A stretch of 64,000 nt of DNA from Dictyostelium discoideum. Lineage: Eukaryota. Below are positions 16,489 to 54,253 of the stretch, piece after piece; position 1 is the stretch's first letter; every line of letters starts with the position of its first letter. The position numbers were made by a program, and so were the translations under genes. The notes beneath the pieces were generated by a model. That model was not told the origin of the DNA. It saw only the letters and a list, made by a program, of their open reading frames with translations, and searched no databases. The stretch covers positions 5,792,001 through 5,856,000 of the forward strand of contig CM000151.3 of assembly GCA_000004695.1 (NCBI GenBank), in the 5' to 3' direction.

Positions 16489-21651
<5,163 letters not shown>

Positions 21652-23543: not shown

Positions 23544-26897
<3,354 letters not shown>

Positions 26898-27989: not shown

Positions 27990-29284
27990 TGAATTATTAT
28001 TTAGTTGGAAGTTGTTGAAATTTTTTTGAGGAGGTAGACTATTAGGGTATGTTAATAAATCATTAAATCCCATATGTGTAATTTATTTTGTAACATACAC
28101 TGCACAATATTATTGAGCATCATTGCAATAATATTCAAAAAAAAGGTTATCCAACGGTAACGGCCTGAGGGTATTCGATAAATATTTCTATTCTTGATGT
28201 CCATAGAATTTCTATAAAGTAAATATACAACAGGAGTTATATGAACTATAAGAGTATATGCAGAAAAAAACCTGGAGCATCATTTTTTCACATTTAAAAT
28301 TGGATTGACCAATGAATCTTTACCATATGAATATACACCCACAATATTTGTGGAACCCTGTCTTTAAGAATTGAGGAATTTCTTTTTAAAATGTTTTAAA
28401 TCGATTTCTGAAATATAGTTGGTAATTTCTTTATCATTTCTCTTTCTAATTCTCTTAAAAAAATTAATAAACTTATAAATATTAATAAAAAGAGATGTTT
28501 AATCTGGGAATATGCTTTCATTTCCCCGAATTCAGATCCTGGTTGATCAACCTTACTAAAAGAAGATACAACAATACTATCAAGTGAAATTCCTGGATCT
28601 TGACTATTTCTTTACGTTGGGCAGTACCTAAAGCTCAACTCGAAATTGAAAGACGATACCAAGGGAACCACTAGAGCAGAGTACTTGGGTAAATTTGGTT
28701 AATTGAACGGTTTCTGTAGCTGTGTTCATTTTATACGAAAAAGAGAAAAAGGGTTTGTAAGATTTAGAATTATAATTGAAATCCAAAGAGAAAAAACTTC
28801 TTTTTGCTGAAATAGTCAGTGGGCATGTTACAATTTTGATAAATTGTCACAGATGGAAACTCTAAGTTTTAATGAAATGTTGTATTACACACTTAACAGT
28901 CATTTCTTTTTTCTCCTTGACTTCGAACCTGTGATCTTATTTTTTTTAAAGACGAAAAGGACAGACCCCTCAGGGAGTTGAACCCTGGACCAACTGCTAA
29001 CTTCTAACGTTTTGGAGACAATTACAATAAACCACTATGCTAAGGAGTCTTTGAAAAATAACGGAATGAAACACTTTGCTAAGCAGCCATTTTATACACA
29101 AGCGGTTATAAAAACATTAAGAATCAAATCAAAGCAACGGCCAGAAGAACAAAATAAATTAGACTCACTAATCTCGCTAAAGCTATTACAATTTAGCAGA
29201 CAATGGAACTCACCTCTTCACGCAATAGAACTTCCTAAACATCTCAAAAAATACAATAATTCACTCAGTACTTTCTATAAATAA

Positions 29285-46828: not shown

Positions 46829-49800
46829 ATGCAAAAAATAAAAGAGGGGTACAGGAGGAGACATGATTATATCATTCCTAAATTTATATCCTTTCAATCT
46901 GGATATCTCGATTTCTCATTTTATCAAGTATCGCTAAAAAATGTGAAGTATCTCGATTTATCATCGTATTATCAATTACACGCACCAAGAAGATTTCGAA
47001 AAATTGTGGAGTATCTAAATTTATCATATGGTCAATTACTCACACTAGGAACATTGCCAAAATATGTGATGTCTCTCGATTTATCATCATATAATCAACT
47101 ATTCACACCAGGAAGATTGCCAATTAGGGTGTCTCTCGATTTATCATCATATAATCAACTATTCACACCAGGAAGATTGCCAGATACTGTGGATTATCTC
47201 AAATTATCATCCTATAATCAACTATTCACACCAGGAACATTGCCAAATCATATGGTTTATCTCAATTTATCATCCTATAATCAACCATTAACACCTGGAA
47301 CATTACCAAATAAGGTGAAGTATCTCGTTTTATCATCGTATAATCAATTACTCACACCTGGAACATTACCAAATAATGTGAAGTATGTCGATTTATCATC
47401 ATATAATAAATTACTCACACCTGAAACATTACCAAATAAGGTGAAGTATCTCGTTTTATCATCGTATGATCAATTACTCACACCTGGAACATTACCAAAT
47501 AATGTGAAGTGTGTCGATTTATCATCATATGATAAATTACTCACACCTGGAACATTACCAAATAATGTGAAGTATGTCGATTTATCATCATATAATAAAT
47601 TACTCACACCTAGAACATTACCAAATAATGTGGAGTGTCTCGTTTTATCATCGTATAATCAATTACTCACACCTGGAATATTGCCAAATTATGTGAAGTA
47701 TCTCGATATATCATCATATAATCAATTACTCACACCTGGAACATTGTCAAATAATGTAGAGTATCTCGATTTATCATCATATAATCAAGTACTCGCACCT
47801 AAAACTATTCCAAATAATGTTAAGTGTCTCGATTGTCCATCTTATAAGCAATCACTCATATCTGAAACATTTCCCAATAGGGTTGGAGATCTCGAATTAT
47901 CCGATCACCCAAAACATGTCAATGATAACTGGGAAATTATTAAACCTCAAAAGAATATATCAGAAAATAAAGTTTATTATACCACCAAACATAAAAATGT
48001 AAGCATAATTATTTAAAATCACTTTAAATTTCCTCCAATCATTCAAATTAAATTTAATTAACCCATTGTTAATAGGCCAAGATTATAGATGTTTTAAATA
48101 TTTGCAAATGCTCTCTAAAGTTATATGGATATGTTAAAGATAGAAATAACGAATTTAACATTTATTTCGAATATATTGATAAAGCAATTCCATTATCTAG
48201 GTTATTGGAAAAGCTCAATAAAAAAGAACAATTTATTGTAGCTACTGAAATAATCAAATCAATAAAGAGTATTCATGAAATGGGTATAATTCATTTTGAT
48301 ATTAAATGCCAAAATATTCTTATTCTTTATGATGAAAATGAAAAAATGTTACCGACAGATTTTATTAAGATAATTGGCTTTGACCATTCAACATTAGATT
48401 CAGAAGTAAATTCAAATATTATTGGTGTAACAGAAACTCATATGGCGCCAGAAATTAAATTAAAAAATGGTAAATTAGGTTATAAATCAGATATCTGGAG
48501 TTTAGGTTGTACATTAATTGAAATTGTAGGTGGTAACCTAAAATTACTAGATATTAATGGTATTCCTTTAATTCCTGATCATTTATCAAATCTTTTTAAA
48601 AACACTATCCAACATTGTTTACAAATCAATCCAAATGCTAGATTCAATGCCAATGAATTGTACAACTATGTAATTAAAGACAGCATAATGGAACCAATAG
48701 AACCAATTTACCTTCCCAATCAATGTACCAATTTACCATTATTCAATGAGGTAATTGTTCCATCAGGTTTTTTTGGTATAAAATATTTAGAATTACAAGC
48801 CTACAATCAACCAATTGATAGTATATTTATCTTTAATGGTGTAGAGTATTTAATATTACAATCATTCAACCATCCTTTAGGTCCAGGTATATTACCAGAA
48901 AGTATTAAGTATTTAAAACTACCATCCTTTAACCATCCTCTTAAAGAAGGATCAATTCCTCGATCAGTAATACACCTTGTATTTAATAAATTTAATCAAT
49001 TTTCTCTAGATGAAATAAACTTAATTCTTCCAAAATTTTTAGACTTTGGTGATGCATTCGATATTGAAAAATATGGGATTTTAATTCCTGAAGATTCAAT
49101 CCTAACACTAAGAACTGGATTTACATTTAACCAACCCATTAATCAAAGATACATCCCTTCTTCAGTTACAGATCTACAATTATACAACTACAATTTAAAA
49201 ATACTACCCCATAGTATTCCTCGGTCAATAATAATGCTAACACTCGGTTCAAATTTCACTCACTTTGAATCATTATCAAATCTTCCATCATCAATTATCA
49301 ATTTGACATTCGGTTTCAAAAACAATTTTAAAATAGCGGAGTTAAAAAAATATATACCATCACATATCACATCAATAAACATCAATGGTAAAATAGTTAA
49401 TTTTAAAAAATCATCACCTTTAAACACATTTAATCAATCGACAGATAATATATTAAATAATAATGAGCATTTTAAGGAGGATTGGGAAATTATTTCAACA
49501 TTAGGAAGTGGCAATTTTGGAAAAGTATTTAAGGCAAGAAAAATCAATGGAATCATAAATGGATCAAAAGTATCGTTGTGTGCAATAAAAAAAATTGAAA
49601 AAAAAGATAAATTAAAAATTGTATGTATTCATATGAAAATTATATTTTTTTTAAAAACACTAACATTAAAAAACAATTAAATTTTAAAATAGAAATTATC
49701 AACAGAGGTTGAGATTTTAAATAAATTAAAAGATAATGAACATTCAATGAAATACTATGGTTATGGATACGATGAAGATGATAATCTATTTATTTATACA

Positions 49801-51021
49801 GAATACATTGAAGGTTCCACATCTATTTCAGACCTAATAAAAAAAAAACCAAATAATAGATTTGAAGAGGAAGAAATAAAATCTTTAATGATTAAAATTG
49901 TCAAAGCGCTAAGTAAAATTCACGAATCAGGTGTTATTCATCGTGATATTAAAAGTGATCACATCATTTTGGCTCAAGATAAAAATAATGAAACCATTGT
50001 AAAATTCATAGATTTTGGATTATCAAAACAAATTGAAAAGAATTCAAAGTATTATTCATTTGTAGGTACAGATTCACACATGGCACCAGAAGTTAAATTA
50101 CAAAATGGTAAAGCAGGTAGTAAATCCGATATTTTTTGTATAGGTTGCACAATGATTGAAATGGCTGGTTTGAATTTGTGCCATTCTGAAAGAGATGATA
50201 AAGGTATACCCTCAATACCAACACACCTATCCAATTCATTCAAAAATATAATTCAAAATTGTTTAAAGTTTGACACAAACGCTAGGCATAGTGTTGAAAG
50301 TTTAATTATTACCTTGTCTAATGTAAGGGTTAAATATAAATTACAAAGAAAGAAACCCATTCTAATTTTTTTTTAAAAATTTGTAAAAAATTTTATCTAG
50401 ATTCAAATTGAAGGCGATTCAGTATTTGAAAAGTATTTATCACCAAATTTAAAGAAATTAGAATTAAAAACCAATGAACCAATTTTATTAGGATCAATTG
50501 GTAATGAAATAAACTACCTTTCATTACCAATTTATAACCAAATGATAACACCAGGAGCTTTACCACCATCTGTTCAATATCTCTTATTTAATAAATTAAA
50601 TCAATACCTTGAATGTGATTCAATACCAGAATCAGTTAAATATTTAGATTTAGGTAATGAATTTGACATTGAAAAAAATGGAATTAATCTTTCAAACGAA
50701 TCAATATTAGTACTTAGATGTGGTTTTAATTTTACACAACCAGTTAGCCAAAGACTCCTACCTTATTCTGTAACAGATTTACAATTATACAACTATAATA
50801 TTAATTTAAAAAGAAACAGTATTCCAACATTAGTTACATCGCTCACTCTTGGTTCAAATTTCACAAACATCGAATCCCTTTCATTTCTTCCCGAAAATGT
50901 CAATAGTTTAGCAATAGGTATTAAAGATGAAGATGAAAAACTAACCAAAGAAATAGAAAAAATAATACAAACAAAAAAAAGCATTACCTCCTTTAAAATA
51001 AATGGAATACAAAGAAATTAA
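46829..51021 (+). CDS. FNIP-repeat protein containing two tandem protein-kinase modules (first degenerate/pseudokinase, second catalytically intact); exons 46829..47998, 48076..49620, 49693..50322, 50401..51021
   Basis: Four blocks of 22-aa FNIP repeats (…LSSYNQLLTPGTLPNNVKYLDLSSYN…; …SFNHPL…, …TFNQPI…). Module 1: WEII, but with no Gly-loop or VAIK, HFDIKCQNILI (HRD to HFD), GFD in place of DFG, retained HMAPEIK and SDIWSLGCTLIE. Module 2: GSGNFGKVF, CAIKK, HRDIKSDHIIL, DFGLSK, HMAPEV, SDIFCIGCTMIE. Introns: GTAAGC (47999)…AG (48075), 77 nt; GTATGT (49621)…AG (49692), 72 nt; GTAAGG (50323)…AG (50400), 78 nt. All are phase 0, and the ORF is continuous between kinase 1 and kinase 2. Confidence 0.6.
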
Positions 51022-51230
51022 TAAATTATTTAATATTTATTTATATTTTTCTTTGTTTTTTTTAAAATTATTTTGATGAAAAACTAACGTAATAAATAGA
51101 AAAAATAACAAAAACAAAAAAAAAAAAAGTATTACCTCTTTCAAAATAAATGGAATACAAATAAATTAATAAAATTATTTAATATTTATTTATATTTTTC
51201 TTTGTTTTTTTTTAAAATTATTTTGATTTT
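50981..51230. repeat. ~110-bp tandem duplication covering the 3' end and stop of the FNIP-kinase gene and its 3' flank
   Basis: aaagcattacctcctttaaaataaatggaatacaaagaaattaataaattatttaatatttatttatatttttctttgttttttttaaaattattttgat (50981..51085) is repeated with 3 substitutions at 51118..51225. Confidence 0.7.
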
Positions 51231-52030
51231 AAAATTAAATGTTTATCAATTGGTGAAAGTTTTTGATAATTATGAGATTGCATTATAAAGGATGGACTTA
51301 AAAATAAAACATTTGGATATTTTTGTTTTGTAATATCAAATAAACGATCCCATACAGTTTTATCAGTGATAATAAATTTGGTTGAATTTGTTGGAATTGA
51401 AGAAATTGAACCTTTATATGCTGTAATTAAACGAACAATATTCTTTCTTAAAGCTTCATCTTTTACGCTAAGATAAAATTCAAATCCCTCAAAAAATGAT
51501 GGAAGTGGATTTAAAATATCTAAATTGAAAGAAGAAAAAAAAAAAAAAATTAGATACTAAACTTTTTGAATTATAAAATATAAATATTATTTTAAACTTA
51601 CATTCTTTGCCCTTAAAATCGTGTGGGTTATTCTTTGGTAATTGAGTTGAACATTTTTCTGGAATAATAGAATCTTTGACTTGGTTTTTATTTGTAGTTG
51701 ATTGTGATGATTGTTGTGATAGTGATGATTTTTTACTATTGCCTTCCAAATAATCGTCAGTTGTTGATTTATTTGGAGAAGTTGGTCCATTTATTGTTGA
51801 TTTATTATTATTCTTACTATTATTTTTATTATTGCTGTTTTCATTATTTTCATTATCATTGCCATTATTATAATTATTTACAAGTCTATCAATTTCTTCT
51901 TTAATTTGTTCAGGTGTCATTAATACTGTATCATGATTATCAAATAATGAATCATCATCAAATTCGTCAAGTTTTTGTTGTTTTGGTTTATATGAAATCT
52001 TTTCTTCTTTTTCTTTTTTATCTTTGTTTT

Positions 52031-52062
<32 letters not shown>

Positions 52063-52937
52063 GTTGTTAATTGGGATTCATCATCATTATCATTATTATT
52101 TGTTTTATTCTTACTGCTACCGCTACTACTACTATTACTATTATTATTATTATTATTATTATAATCATATTCTTCATTATAATATTTGTTTGGTTTATAA
52201 GAAGGTGAAGATTTATAAGTATTATTATTATTATTATCAGATGAATGATGATTTTTTTGTTTTTTATGATATGGATTATGTTGAATTAAATCTCTATCAG
52301 GTTTATAACCATAAGTTCTTTTTAAATAATCCAAACCATCATTTAAGAGATCATCAACATTTTCATGAACATGATCATCCAAATGATCAGGATCTTTTTC
52401 TTTATCATCATCGGAAGCTTCAGATGAAGAGAAACTATTATCAATGAAACCATCATTGTAATCATAAACATTTGGTATATGACTATCATCATCACTATCA
52501 TCTGAACCTGGTGCACCTTTCTTTTTTCTTTTTTTACTTGTTGAATCTGTACTAATGGTTTTCTTTGCTTTTTTAGCTGATGCTATCTTTTCTGCTATAT
52601 CATCTTGTTGACCATCACTATCACTATGGTCATCTTGGAATGTATAGTTTTTAATTGGTAATCTTGATTTCAATTTATAACAATCTTCAATCCATTTTGG
52701 TTTAATTATTGAACCACCTGATTTTTGTGCAATTTTAAATTTATCTGTACCCCTAAATGGTGTCACTAGATGAGTTGCCTCTCTACACCAATCTGGTTTA
52801 TATCCAGCTCCCATCTCTAATGCTTTTTCACGAATTTCACCTCTTTGTGGATTTTGAATACCACCAATTACTAATACTACTCCTTTCTATATAAAGAAAT
52901 TTAAAAAAAAAAAAAAAAATTTAAAATTAATTATAAT

Positions 52938-52981
<44 letters not shown>

Positions 52982-53150
52982 TTTAATTATACATACTAAT
53001 AAATTACCGAATGGTGTTAATTTTTGTTGTTGTTTTGGTGTTGCAATAATTTGTAAATCATCACATTCTTCATCTGTTTCACCATCATTTGTATTTGTTA
53101 ATTTTTCTAATGATTTTCTATCAGTTGATTTAGTTTGATTTTCATTTTTA

Positions 53151-53188
<38 letters not shown>

Positions 53189-54253
53189 AATTTTAATATC
53201 TTGCATACTATCATCTTCATCACTTTGTTTTGGTTCAACTAATTTTGATTTTTGTTTTTGTTGTTGTGATGATTGTTGTGATGATTGTTGTGATGATTGT
53301 TTTTTTTGTTGTTGATCTAATTTTTTCTTAATTTCAATTTTCTCTTCTTCATCTTCTTCTTCAGTTTCAATTTCTTTTTCAGGTTCTTTATTTACACCTT
53401 TTGATTTTGATTTTTGATTAATAACTAAAACTTGACCAGGTAATGGATTTGATAACATTACAGTTGCAGATTTTGATAATTTCTTTGGTGTTGAAGAATT
53501 TGATCTCTTTAACTCTGGAATAAAGTTTAAAATTTGAGTTTTATCTGATTTCAATGGAATGTTTGGTTCAGATTCAAAACTTGTATCCATTAAATTTGAA
53601 GCTGATGTATCTGTTAAATCAATTTCATTGGAGATATCACCCAATTTCTCTGATTTTATTTGAGGTGTGACATTATTATTATTTGATGACGATGATGATA
53701 ATTTGGTTGTTGTTATTGTTGGTGTTGGTGTTGGTGTTGGTGTTGTTTTTGAAGGTGGTGCATAAATTTTAACTAATGAAATACCAAGATTATCATCTAA
53801 CCATGGTTGTGAACAAACAATTCTAACTCTTTCCCATTTTCTTGGTACTGTTTGTGATGAAAAATTACTAGTATTAAATGATTTCATACGATTTCTATTG
53901 GTTTTATTTGTAGTTTCACTTAGTGACATGAAATTGGTTAATGGTACCAATACTAAGAATTCTGTTGGCTCCCATGTAACTAATCCAACCAATACCTCTA
54001 TGAATGCTGATCCTGCATTTGTAATATCAATTTGATGAATTAAACTTGGTGTTGGAAATTGTAAATCTATAAATGCTTTACCTGTTTTATCTTTAGTTTG
54101 CCATATTCTATATGTATCATCCAATAAAACATTTGATGATTTATTATATTCACTCTCTGATGAACAACATGATACACTTAAATCAATTAATCTTGGTGGT
54201 TTTATTGGTGTTTGTGTCTGTACTTGTGTTTGTGTTATTATTTTTGTTGTCAT
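51218..54253 (-). CDS. xrcc1: XRCC1 homolog (DNA single-strand-break repair scaffold): N-terminal XRCC1_N domain, BRCT1 and BRCT2; exons 54253..52997, 52886..51602, 51519..51218
   Basis: The N-terminal domain aligns with human XRCC1: DTYRIWQTKDKTGKAFIDLQFPTPSLIHQIDITNAGSAFIEVLVG vs DTYRKWRAAKAGEKTISVVLQLEKEEQIHSVDIGNDGSAFVEVLVG, and RVRIVCSQPW vs RVKIVCSQPY. BRCT1 is KGVVLVIGGIQNPQRGEIREKALEMGAGYKPDWCREATHLV…W. A GTATGT donor (52996 down) and AG (52888/7) give a 110-nt intron containing (ATT)n. A GTAAGT donor (51601 down) and AG (51521/0) give an 82-nt intron leading into BRCT2 (FEGFEFYLSVKDEALRKNIVRLITAYKGSISS…KFIITDKTVWDRLF…). Phases match (0/0 and 1/2). Confidence 0.75.

Follow-up and report, generated by a model that had tools for sequence, protein, structure and literature searches.

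A predicted pseudokinase and kinase joined in one reading frame of the Dictyostelium discoideum FNIP-repeat gene fnkE

Judged by its sequence, the segment 46829..51021 of the window (the whole 64,000-nt stretch of DNA that was analysed; all coordinates are positions within it, on the + strand) is one protein-coding gene, identified as fnkE (DDB_G0275879) of Dictyostelium discoideum AX4. We consider it highly probable that its product carries two FNIPK units in frame, the first with a pseudokinase module (K1) and the second with a kinase module (K2); K1 may regulate or dock K2. The preliminary description of this DNA had read it as a single gene in which a degenerate pseudokinase precedes a related kinase, both flanked by FNIP repeats; its core claim is borne out, with FNIP repeats after each module, and agrees with the existing annotation.

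Gene identity and structure

The spliced 1321-aa product matches XP_643528.1 / UniProt Q552Z2 (fnkE; 100% identity, 100% coverage), which bears the name "Probable serine/threonine-protein kinase fnkE". The gene starts with the ATG at 46829, ends with the TAA stop at 51019-51021 and comprises exons 46829-47998, 48076-49620, 49693-50322 and 50401-51021, separated by three introns of 77, 72 and 78 nt that are all GT..AG and phase 0 and have 79-88% A+T compared with 68-74% in the exons. Along the product lie, in order, FNIP array A, K1 (aa 368-597), FNIP block B, K2 (aa 860-1115) and FNIP block C. The features are as follows.

46829..47998, + strand: exon 1 (aa 1-390), N-terminus, FNIP array A and start of K1; ATG at 46829, GTAAGC donor at 47999
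46952..47929, + strand: FNIP array A (aa 42-367), 15 units of 20-21 aa (LDLSSYNQLLTPGTLPNNVKY); TRF, Pfam FNIP E = 1.3e-61
47930..48696, + strand: predicted pseudokinase module K1 (aa 368-597), split by intron 1; Pfam Pkinase, motif table
47999..48075, + strand: intron 1, 77 nt, phase 0, between the K1 beta3 region and alphaC; GTAAGC..AATAG, 79% A+T
48076..49620, + strand: exon 2 (aa 391-905), remainder of K1, FNIP block B, linker and start of the K2 N-lobe; stop-free over 515 codons
48697..49410, + strand: FNIP block B (aa 598-835), homologous to block C; Pfam FNIP E = 3.3e-32
49411..49482, + strand: linker between unit 1 and unit 2 (aa 836-859); unit alignment
49483..50322, + strand: predicted kinase module K2 (aa 860-1115), split by intron 2; Pfam Pkinase, motif table
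49621..49692, + strand: intron 2, 72 nt, phase 0, between K2 beta3 and alphaC; GTATGT..AAATAG, 88% A+T
50323..50400, + strand: intron 3, 78 nt, phase 0, where K2 meets FNIP block C; without counterpart in unit 1
50401..51021, + strand: exon 4, FNIP block C (aa 1116-1321) and TAA stop; Pfam FNIP E = 1.7e-27
50932..51227, + strand: tandem duplication, 148-bp period, 2 copies; TRF, 89% matches

As judged by homology, fnkE is a member of the Dictyostelium-specific STE/Dicty3/FNIPK kinase subfamily, which is recognized by a STE-like kinase joined to FNIP repeats (PF05725) and by clustering with fnkA-D: the product has three FNIP blocks, its nearest solved relatives are STE20-type kinases, and the tree places both of its kinase domains among FNIPK units. 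The window yielded no further FNIPK.

One gene built of two units

The two modules are joined by exon 2, in which the coding frame contains no stop in 515 codons (P ~8e-21 from its composition), against 52 and 59 stops in the other two frames. Over 48700-49450 the G+C content is 0.23-0.33, the level of coding DNA, compared with 0.10-0.19 in true intergenic DNA and introns, and A/T-only runs in exon 2 reach at most 20 nt, as against 65 and 41 nt in the intergenic DNA on either side. Five other genes, in three D. discoideum-group assemblies and D. firmibasis, are modelled with this fused layout; across species the junction is open in six genes, with a dN/dS of ~0.3 for FNIP block B plus the linker. 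Genes P0002 and P0003 are syntenic with fnkE, lying between the alanyl-tRNA synthetase gene and a downstream minus-strand gene, which in locus L005 is an XRCC1/BRCT gene. It is true that the family norm is the single-unit kinase+FNIP gene (fnkA; D. dimigraforme P0035), and that the D. purpureum units standing in tandem form separate ORF sets, most with terminal stops, as would be expected if there were two genes or transcripts here, FNIP-pseudokinase-FNIP upstream and kinase-FNIP downstream, with the frame between them open by chance. Against the open frame, the composition and conservation of the junction, and the agreement of two independent annotations on the 1321-aa product, such an arrangement is extremely improbable, and we infer a single mRNA for fnkE.

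Unit 1 (aa 368-859) and unit 2 (aa 860-1321) align end to end at 47% identity (z = 41 against shuffles), with FNIP blocks B and C aligning through ...ITSININGK / ...ITSFKINGI and the linker (aa 836-859) sitting where unit 2 terminates in QRN-stop. The preliminary description had taken the unit to be a FNIP block followed by a kinase, which the alignment and the relatives contradict: as aligned, the repeated unit is a kinase with its downstream FNIP block, and the N-terminal 21-aa array (TRF: 63-bp period, 15.4 copies, 83% matches, 46936-47901) is a separate expansion. Alignment to other FNIP-repeat kinases, proposed earlier as a check, returned the same kinase-then-FNIP order, the standard FNIPK layout, in fnkA, P0035 and the D. 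purpureum units.

Introns 1 and 2, previously placed at a homologous position, are indeed both phase 0 and just before alphaC, but their aligned positions differ by 2-5 residues in a stretch rich in indels; their homology is plausible, though not exact, because single-unit relatives have the same intron. Intron 1 is kept in P0002, P0003 and P0004 and is missing in D. firmibasis, in which the K1 N-lobe is deleted, and intron 2 is kept in every one of the six fnkE-type genes as well as in the single-unit gene of D. dimigraforme. Since P0035 also has the K2/FNIP junction intron, and the ORFs of the D. purpureum units are broken at this point, unit 1 has probably lost it.

The earlier proposal of a tandem duplication followed by decay of the upstream copy, taken as a simple and recent internal event, is poorly supported. 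An NJ tree joins K2 to the single-unit P0035 (81%) and leaves K1 outside, K1+K2 alone receiving 6%; K2 is closer to fnkA (52% identity) than to K1 (40%); and K1 has Asn at the position of PKA N171, where K2 and P0035 have His in common. The grouping of K2 with P0035 and the Asn kept by K1 imply that the split is older or that two paralogous units were fused, and the K1/K2 split appears to predate the single-unit D. dimigraforme relative. That fnkE arose by fusion of two diverged FNIPK paralogues, or by a much older duplication, and not by recent internal duplication and decay, is nevertheless somewhat doubtful: a distance tree could misplace K1 because of its long branch, support for the clade K1+(K2+P0035) is only 56%, FNIP blocks B and C align end to end, and the two domains, named FNIPK-Ea and FNIPK-Eb, are sisters in the 2006 kinome tree, with Ea on a long branch (Goldberg et al. 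2006, PLoS Genet 2:e38, PMC1420674).

The D. purpureum gene P0007 was considered as a dual-domain ortholog and rejected. Its 12.8-kb model stitches together exons of several tandem kinase+FNIP units, most of which have their own stops, and it is not syntenic (PIP5K lies upstream); for these reasons it is not evidence for an old dual-domain gene.

Catalytic motifs of the two modules

Both modules match the Pfam Pkinase profile (PF00069, length 263) above its gathering cut-off of 31.7 bits, the outcome of a profile scoring that had also been proposed as a check. K1 scores 87.9 bits (E = 9.5e-25) over profile positions 46-259 only, leaving beta1-beta3 of the N-lobe unmatched, and K2 scores 153.8 bits (E = 7.4e-45) over positions 2-257. 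K1 has lost the Gly-loop by deletion and carries another residue in place of the alphaC Glu; H463-F-D465 (48292-48300) and G491-F-D (48376-48384, instead of DFG) occupy the catalytic motifs; D465, N470, APE, KSDIWSLG and NARF are retained. The motif table thus agrees with the earlier reading of a module without a Gly-loop, with HFD and GFD and with APE and subdomain IX preserved. That reading had also reported loss of the VAIK lysine, of which the motif itself is gone but the loss of the lysine is uncertain, K387 (YYTTK) lying at most one column from the aligned beta3 Lys. GFD reads GFK in P0003 and D. firmibasis, and the C-lobe motifs HxD, KxxN, APE, KSDIWSLG and NxRF are conserved in all six K1 copies. 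With a pseudokinase defined by loss of at least one of K72, D166 and D184, or of the nucleotide-binding loop, K1 is one as predicted from its motifs. Its best PDB matches are CDKL3, PAK1 and MST3/4. AlphaFold2 on K1 alone, run on the single sequence without an alignment, gave an unusable model (mean pLDDT 34.9, pTM 0.22).

K2 has GSGNFGKV (Gly-loop, 49504-49527), CAIK (K895, 49579-49590), TEVEIL, HRD (D990, within HRDIKSDH at 49939-49962), DFG (D1012, 50011-50019) and APE, and its best PDB matches are RSK N-terminal domains, TNIK, MST3/4 and MAP4K4. The catalytic-loop Asn (PKA N171) binds the second metal ion, and in K2 its place is taken by H995. The statement that K2 has every catalytic motif therefore stands for the Gly-loop, Lys, HRD, DFG and APE but fails at this Asn, and because it is missing the activity of K2 is not assured. 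The substitution is found in all six K2 copies (HRDIKSDH/HRDIK(G/C)DH) and recurs in P0035 of D. dimigraforme, whereas Asn is kept in fnkA and among the D. purpureum relatives. K895, D990 and D1012 are all present at K72, D166 and D184, the residues by which Goldberg et al. 2006 judge catalytic competence. Complementation of two half-defective active sites, K1 without the DFG Asp and K2 without the catalytic-loop Asn, was set aside as structurally implausible.

Selection on the two modules

K1 is under relaxed purifying selection, with a dN/dS of 0.4-0.5 compared with 0.25-0.35 for K2. Between AX4 and the syntenic P0003 the K1 value is 0.50 (0.30-0.86), between AX4 and P0004 0.45 (0.28-0.79), between AX4 and D. 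firmibasis P0005 0.41 (0.25-0.65), and between two D. firmibasis copies 0.36 (0.19-0.66); in the closest comparison, AX4 with P0002, it is 0.70 (0.27-2.05), an interval that contains neutrality. The K2 range, from AX4 against P0003, P0004 and P0005, is the lowest of fnkE in these comparisons. Because K2 of P0004 contains a 1-nt frameshift in an A-run that is masked by a predicted 55-nt intron, and may reflect a pseudogene or a homopolymer error, we weight the reading toward the syntenic P0003 and D. firmibasis. Relative to the fnkA outgroup, K1 has 46 unique changes and K2 has 17 (p = 0.0003); AX4 K1 lacks 6 aa (YIYEEY) found in three relatives, and in D. firmibasis most of the K1 N-lobe is gone.

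This faster change and progressive erosion, together with a dN/dS about twice that of K2 that reaches an interval including 1 in the closest pair, would fit a K1 that is a functionless relic without regulatory role, kept because a stop there would truncate the downstream kinase. We regard this as unlikely, since selection against stops alone would not restrain non-synonymous change, and yet dN/dS is below 1, with intervals that exclude 1, in the other four comparisons, and the C-lobe motifs persist in every K1 copy. Similar doubt attaches to the idea that both modules are dead and fnkE is a pure scaffold, the His in place of the metal-binding Asn abolishing Mg-ATP catalysis in K2. The constancy of that His among the K2 copies and P0035, as opposed to Asn in fnkA and the D. 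purpureum relatives, would suit a scaffold, as would the qualification placed on K2 activity in the kinome catalogue ('aq', 'lacks N171'; PMC1420674). On the other side, the Gly-loop, the Lys of beta3, the Glu of alphaC, the Asp of both HRD and DFG, and APE are all present in K2, which has the lowest dN/dS of the gene in the AX4 comparisons and is predicted active by the K72/D166/D184 criterion (PMC1420674).

A duplication at the 3′ end

The 3′ duplication, reported earlier as ~110 bp at 50981..51230, is real but differs in size and start: TRF gives a 148-bp period with 2.0 copies at 50932-51227 (89% matches), and a repeat search agrees. Copy 1 takes in the 30 terminal codons of fnkE together with its stop and 3′ flank, and copy 2 is non-coding. 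The syntenic relatives L001 and L005 have one copy each of the 148-bp segment, so the duplication is lineage-specific, but it leaves the reading frame untouched and is weak evidence for the earlier suggestion of a locus still rearranging.

A possible role for fnkE

The layout, a 15-unit array of 21-aa FNIP repeats followed by two standard FNIPK units apparently in one frame, allows us to propose how the protein may work. FNIP repeats form a leucine-rich-repeat solenoid, and FNIP-kinase fusions have been suggested to give specificity to phosphorylation (PMC9525666). We suggest that the FNIP solenoids of fnkE would be protein-binding surfaces that choose partners or substrates, that K2 would be the sole possible phosphotransferase, and that K1 would serve K2, by analogy with JAK JH2-JH1 or GCN2, in a regulatory or docking capacity without catalysis of its own.

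A more specific version, in which fnkE is a fast-evolving LRR sensor kinase whose array recognizes a changing partner and whose K1 relays to an atypical K2, we consider very unlikely. The partner could be, for example, an FNIP-type protein of a pathogen or giant virus, or else a ligand specific to a strain, and pseudokinase K1 would pass the binding event to a His-for-Asn kinase with unusual metal requirements. Among related genes the unit number of array A varies from ~3 to 24 (motif count), and its dN/dS is 0.5-0.74, a range that may partly reflect misaligned repeats.

As a discovery this has little weight, the gene, both domains and their predicted activities having been in the kinome catalogue and UniProt since 2006. 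It does offer a sound candidate for a pseudokinase and a kinase built into one protein, in an organism amenable to genetics, and the purifying selection on K1, the conserved Asn-to-His change in K2 and the evidence for an early split of the units may be of use to experimenters.

Comparison with known systems

The dual-kinase layout of fnkE is correct but already known. Goldberg et al. 2006 (Table S2, PMC1420674) list FNIPK-E as dual-domain, "partial kd/kd", with activity prediction "iq/aq" (inactive/active, both qualified), motifs HFDIKCQN/HRDIKSDH and GFD/DFG, the remark that Eb 'lacks N171', and starts at aa 368 for FNIPK-Ea and aa 860 for FNIPK-Eb. FNIPK-E (DDB0229870, DDB_G0275879, Q552Z2) is the same gene, with an identical protein and the same starts, motifs and activity prediction; beyond that entry we add the selection estimates, the ortholog and intron comparisons and the detail of the 3′ duplication. 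A literature search for fnkE, DDB_G0275879, FNIPK and fnkA-F turned up the kinome paper but otherwise nothing relevant, and gave no study on the function of an fnk gene.

The single-unit FNIPKs (fnkA-D; D. dimigraforme KAN0053051.1; the D. purpureum relatives) resemble fnkE in having a STE-like kinase followed by a C-terminal FNIP block, and P0035 and, judged by ORF breaks, the D. purpureum units have one phase-0 intron ahead of alphaC and another where kinase and FNIP block meet. They have one unit per gene with the kinase N-terminal, whereas fnkE has two units in frame, carries a further FNIP array at its N-terminus and is without the junction intron in unit 1. The AX4 gene fnkF_ps (DDB0203080, FNIPK-F) shares the dual layout, with motifs HFDIKCQN/HRDIKGDH, but is an annotated pseudogene and lies outside the window.

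An inactive N-terminal and an active C-terminal kinase domain recur in Dictyostelium (dual-domain section, PMC1420674), and the kinome paper itself draws the comparison with JAK and GCN2 (PMC1420674). Like JAK JH2-JH1 and GCN2, fnkE is predicted to have, within one polypeptide, an inactive kinase-like domain towards the N-terminus and a kinase domain towards the C-terminus. The likeness does not extend to homology at the family level, GCN2 giving only a weak generic kinase match in the PDB search (E = 3.9e-10): both fnkE domains are FNIPK paralogues nearest STE20-type kinases and, unlike the paired domains of JAK and GCN2, they are separated by ~260 aa of FNIP repeats and linker.

Gene model and product

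The gene at 46829-51021 (+), in a window of A+T-rich Dictyostelium DNA, opens at ATG 46829 and runs to TAA 51019-51021; splicing of its three introns (79–88% A+T, versus 68–74% in the four exons) leaves 3966 nt encoding 1321 aa. This product matches XP_643528.1 / EAL69690.1 / UniProt Q552Z2 (DDB_G0275879, D. discoideum AX4, annotated 'Probable serine/threonine-protein kinase fnkE') with 100% identity over 100% of the length, and the limits in the preliminary description are the exact CDS bounds of fnkE. Its reading of two kinase-homologous modules (K1 and K2) with FNIP repeats in one frame was borne out by splicing, Pfam and the fnkE identity. Scoring of both modules against the Pkinase profile, a check proposed beforehand, matched K1 as well as K2.

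Introns and domains of fnkE
47999-48075 (+): intron 1, 77 nt, GT..AG, phase 0
49621-49692 (+): intron 2, 72 nt, GT..AG, phase 0
50323-50400 (+): intron 3, 78 nt, GT..AG, phase 0
aa 1-367: FNIP repeats, Pfam E = 1.3e-61
aa 368-597: K1, Pkinase, 87.9 bits, E = 9.5e-25, profile positions 46-259 only
aa 598-859: FNIP repeats, Pfam E = 3.3e-32
aa 860-1115: K2, Pkinase, 153.8 bits, E = 7.4e-45, profile positions 2-257
aa 1116-1321: FNIP repeats, Pfam E = 1.7e-27

A single fnkE mRNA is strongly indicated by the genomic sequence. Exon 2, which begins within K1 and ends within K2, contains 0 stops in 515 codons (chance approximately 8e-21 from composition, and 5e-9 for 48700-49450 alone, the stretch in which a mapped transcript end would have pointed to two genes), and the other two frames hold 52 and 59 stops. 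The G+C content of 48700-49450 (0.23-0.33) resembles that of the remaining CDS, versus 0.10-0.19 in flanking intergenic DNA and introns, and the longest A/T-only run is 20 nt in exon 2 versus 65 and 41 nt in the flanks. Gene models from three other D. discoideum-group assemblies, and two from D. firmibasis, have the fused two-kinase layout too. Two of the D. discoideum-group genes (P0002 and P0003) are syntenic with fnkE, having an alanyl-tRNA synthetase gene upstream and, downstream, a large minus-strand gene (an XRCC1/BRCT gene at locus L005) followed by a peroxiredoxin gene. The neighbours of fnkE were identified by synteny with the annotated relatives' loci L001 and L005:

43862-46483 (+): alanyl-tRNA synthetase gene, upstream
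51231-54253 (-): XRCC1-N/BRCT-domain gene, convergent on fnkE, with its 3′ end approximately 210 bp from the fnkE stop (approximately 50 bp in relatives without the 148-bp duplication)

The 148-bp duplication is real and lineage-specific and leaves the fnkE reading frame untouched. Tandem Repeats Finder placed it at 50932-51227 (period 148 bp, 2.0 copies, 89% matches), so the stop-region duplication noticed earlier (50981..51230) stands, although not its size of ~110 bp. Copy 1 comprises the last 30 fnkE codons, the stop and approximately 60 nt of flank, and a non-coding copy 2 adjoins it. In the two syntenic relatives only one copy is present, and the sequence that succeeds copy 2 in AX4 comes next.

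A degenerate and a near-complete kinase domain

The predicted fnkE product is a single polypeptide that combines three FNIP leucine-rich-repeat blocks with a degenerate kinase-like domain, in which no normal ATP site can exist, and a second kinase domain that has the Lys/Asp/Asp triad, with His for the metal-binding Asn. K1 and K2 were compared by alignment with fnkA, PKA and the corresponding modules of five related genes. K1 lacks the Gly-loop and the alphaC Glu, which is substituted, and has HFD in the catalytic loop (D465 and the catalytic-loop Asn N470 retained) and GFD in the DFG position; it retains APE, KSDIWSLG and the subdomain XI Arg. The preliminary description was correct on the Gly-loop, HFD, GFD and APE, and the loss of the beta3 Lys that it also reported is uncertain, since K387 aligns no more than one column away. 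K2 has GSGNFGKV, CAIK, TEVEIL, HRD, DFG and APE, and its catalytic loop reads HRDIKSDH, with His995 in place of the metal-binding Asn (PKA N171); K2 was thus wrongly credited with every catalytic motif. All six fnkE-type genes in the comparison carry this His, as does a D. dimigraforme relative; in fnkA and the D. purpureum relatives the residue is Asn.

K1 has evolved faster, with 46 unique changes versus 17 in K2 (fnkA as outgroup, p = 0.0003), and it has continued to lose N-lobe sequence: D. firmibasis lacks most of beta1-beta5. AX4 lacks six residues, YIYEEY (47930-47960, aa 368-378), which lie between WEIIK and KPQKNIS in three other D. discoideum-group genes; the gap is a further small deletion in an already degenerate N-lobe. 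Judged from dN/dS (Nei-Gojobori, bootstrap intervals), the K1 C-lobe is under purifying selection, which lends some support, not strong, to a retained non-catalytic role. K1 dN/dS was 0.36 (0.19-0.66) when the two D. firmibasis copies were compared.

dN/dS of AX4 fnkE against related genes
Syntenic P0003: K1 0.50 (0.30-0.86), K2 0.25 (0.15-0.41)
P0004: K1 0.45 (0.28-0.79), K2 0.26
D. firmibasis P0005: K1 0.41 (0.25-0.65), K2 0.35
P0002 (closest): K1 0.70 (0.27-2.05), K2 0.20; too few substitutions to inform

FNIP/FGxxFN repeats form leucine-rich-repeat solenoids, and their fusion to kinases has been proposed as a source of phosphorylation specificity (PMC9525666). Catalysis would fall to K2, whose use of metals may be unusual, K1 may be a regulatory or docking domain, and the FNIP blocks could bind partners. 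Our literature search found no functional papers on fnk genes.

The duplicated unit and its introns

Residues 368-859 and 860-1321 align end to end (47% identity, z = 41 against shuffles). The match extends through the C-terminal FNIP blocks, to ...ITSININGK / ...ITSFKINGI, and the repeated unit is therefore a kinase with its downstream FNIP block rather than the FNIP + kinase order proposed earlier. The N-terminal FNIP array is a separate expansion, with fifteen 20-21-aa units and a 63-bp DNA period (83% matches).

Phase 0 is shared by introns 1 and 2, which lie directly upstream of alphaC in K1 and K2, respectively; their positions are offset by 2-5 aligned residues in an indel-rich stretch. 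Because the D. dimigraforme single-unit gene P0035 has a phase 0 intron at this position and D. purpureum units have an ORF break there, a shared ancestral intron is the simplest reading. Intron 3, at the kinase/FNIP junction, is also present in P0035, and the ORF of D. purpureum units is interrupted at this point; it is absent from fnkE unit 1, which therefore probably lost it.

Age of the duplication

The closest one-unit relative found is this D. dimigraforme gene:

L006:8001-10030 (JBTAPM010000013.1): single-unit kinase+FNIP gene, 616 aa, with the HRDIKSDH loop as in fnkE K2 and both ancestral phase-0 introns

A neighbour-joining tree (23 kinase cores, 199 columns, 100 bootstraps) recovered the K1 and K2 clades at 100% each, joined K2 to the D. 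dimigraforme kinase at 81% and K1 to that pair at 56%; K1 and K2 alone grouped at 6%. At the N171 position K1 has Asn, in contrast to the His common to K2 and the D. dimigraforme protein; the identity of K2 is 52% with fnkA and only 40% with K1, and no K1-like remnant was present upstream of the D. dimigraforme gene. Together these observations suggest, tentatively, either a separation of the units that predates the branching-off of the D. dimigraforme lineage or a fusion of two paralogous units, a scenario we hold to be possible but doubtful. Long-branch effects on K1 may have distorted the tree, and a 2006 tree places K1 and K2 as sisters (PMC1420674). A simple, recent tandem duplication followed by decay of the upstream copy finds little support in the 81% and 6% values.

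Related loci and other window features

Further kinase+FNIP loci and window features were as follows:

L004:4300-17900 (D. purpureum GL871089.1): tandem array of at least 4 kinase+FNIP units (+), most closed by their own stops, and one kinase fragment (-)
L003:10001-14814 (+) and 17883-21367 (-) (D. firmibasis CM069770.1): convergent fnkE-type genes, approximately 3 kb apart
L002:6585-6641 (D. discoideum-group assembly GCA_054859355.1): 1-nt A-run insertion in K2 of P0004, masked by a predicted 55-nt intron
25805-26678: 99-bp (33-aa) tandem array, approximately 9 copies, in + strand ORF 25353-26897 (TRF 82% matches at the 99-bp period; periods 201 and 300 bp fit too)
28962-29050 (-): tRNA-Trp (CCA), 89 nt, the window's sole tRNA gene by ARAGORN; longer than a typical tRNA, perhaps because of an intron

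The annotated 1120-aa 'dual-domain' D. purpureum protein XP_003288828.1 spans 12.8 kb and seems to join exons of different L004 units, and is therefore probably a chimeric gene model. A predicted D. purpureum protein, XP_003283808.1 (1438 aa), has three consecutive kinase+FNIP units with intact HRD loops (HRDVKSAN, HRDIKGDN and HRDIKGSN), and is either a recurrent multi-unit FNIPK fusion in the genus or another merged gene model. Synonymous divergence between the D. firmibasis copies falls from 0.19 (K1 and the FNIP block after it) to 0.08 (K2) and 0.02 (last FNIP block), which suggests recent gene conversion of their 3′ halves. The P0004 locus is not syntenic with fnkE (DOCK gene upstream); it could be a pseudogene, perhaps one corresponding to fnkF_ps of AX4, or the insertion could be a homopolymer sequencing error.

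Comparison with known FNIP kinases

The core of the preliminary interpretation is right; four details (duplicated unit, K2 completeness, duplication age and 3′ repeat size) are wrong. The two-kinase finding is a correct rediscovery of a known feature: Goldberg et al. 2006 (PMC1420674) entered the protein in Table S2 as DDB0229870, FNIPK-E, fnkE, and classed both domains as STE/Dicty3/FNIPK. Their alignment starts the domains at residues 368 and 860, identical to the starts found here, in their tree FNIPK-Ea, on a long branch, is sister to FNIPK-Eb, and they list a pseudogene laid out like fnkE, fnkF_ps. A kinase followed by an FNIP block, the unit repeated in fnkE, is how single-unit FNIPK genes (fnkA and P0035) and the tandem units at the D. 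purpureum L004 locus are normally laid out. Among the nine dual-ePK proteins of PMC1420674, an inactive N-terminal domain combined with an active C-terminal one recurs, an arrangement likened there to JAK and GCN2.
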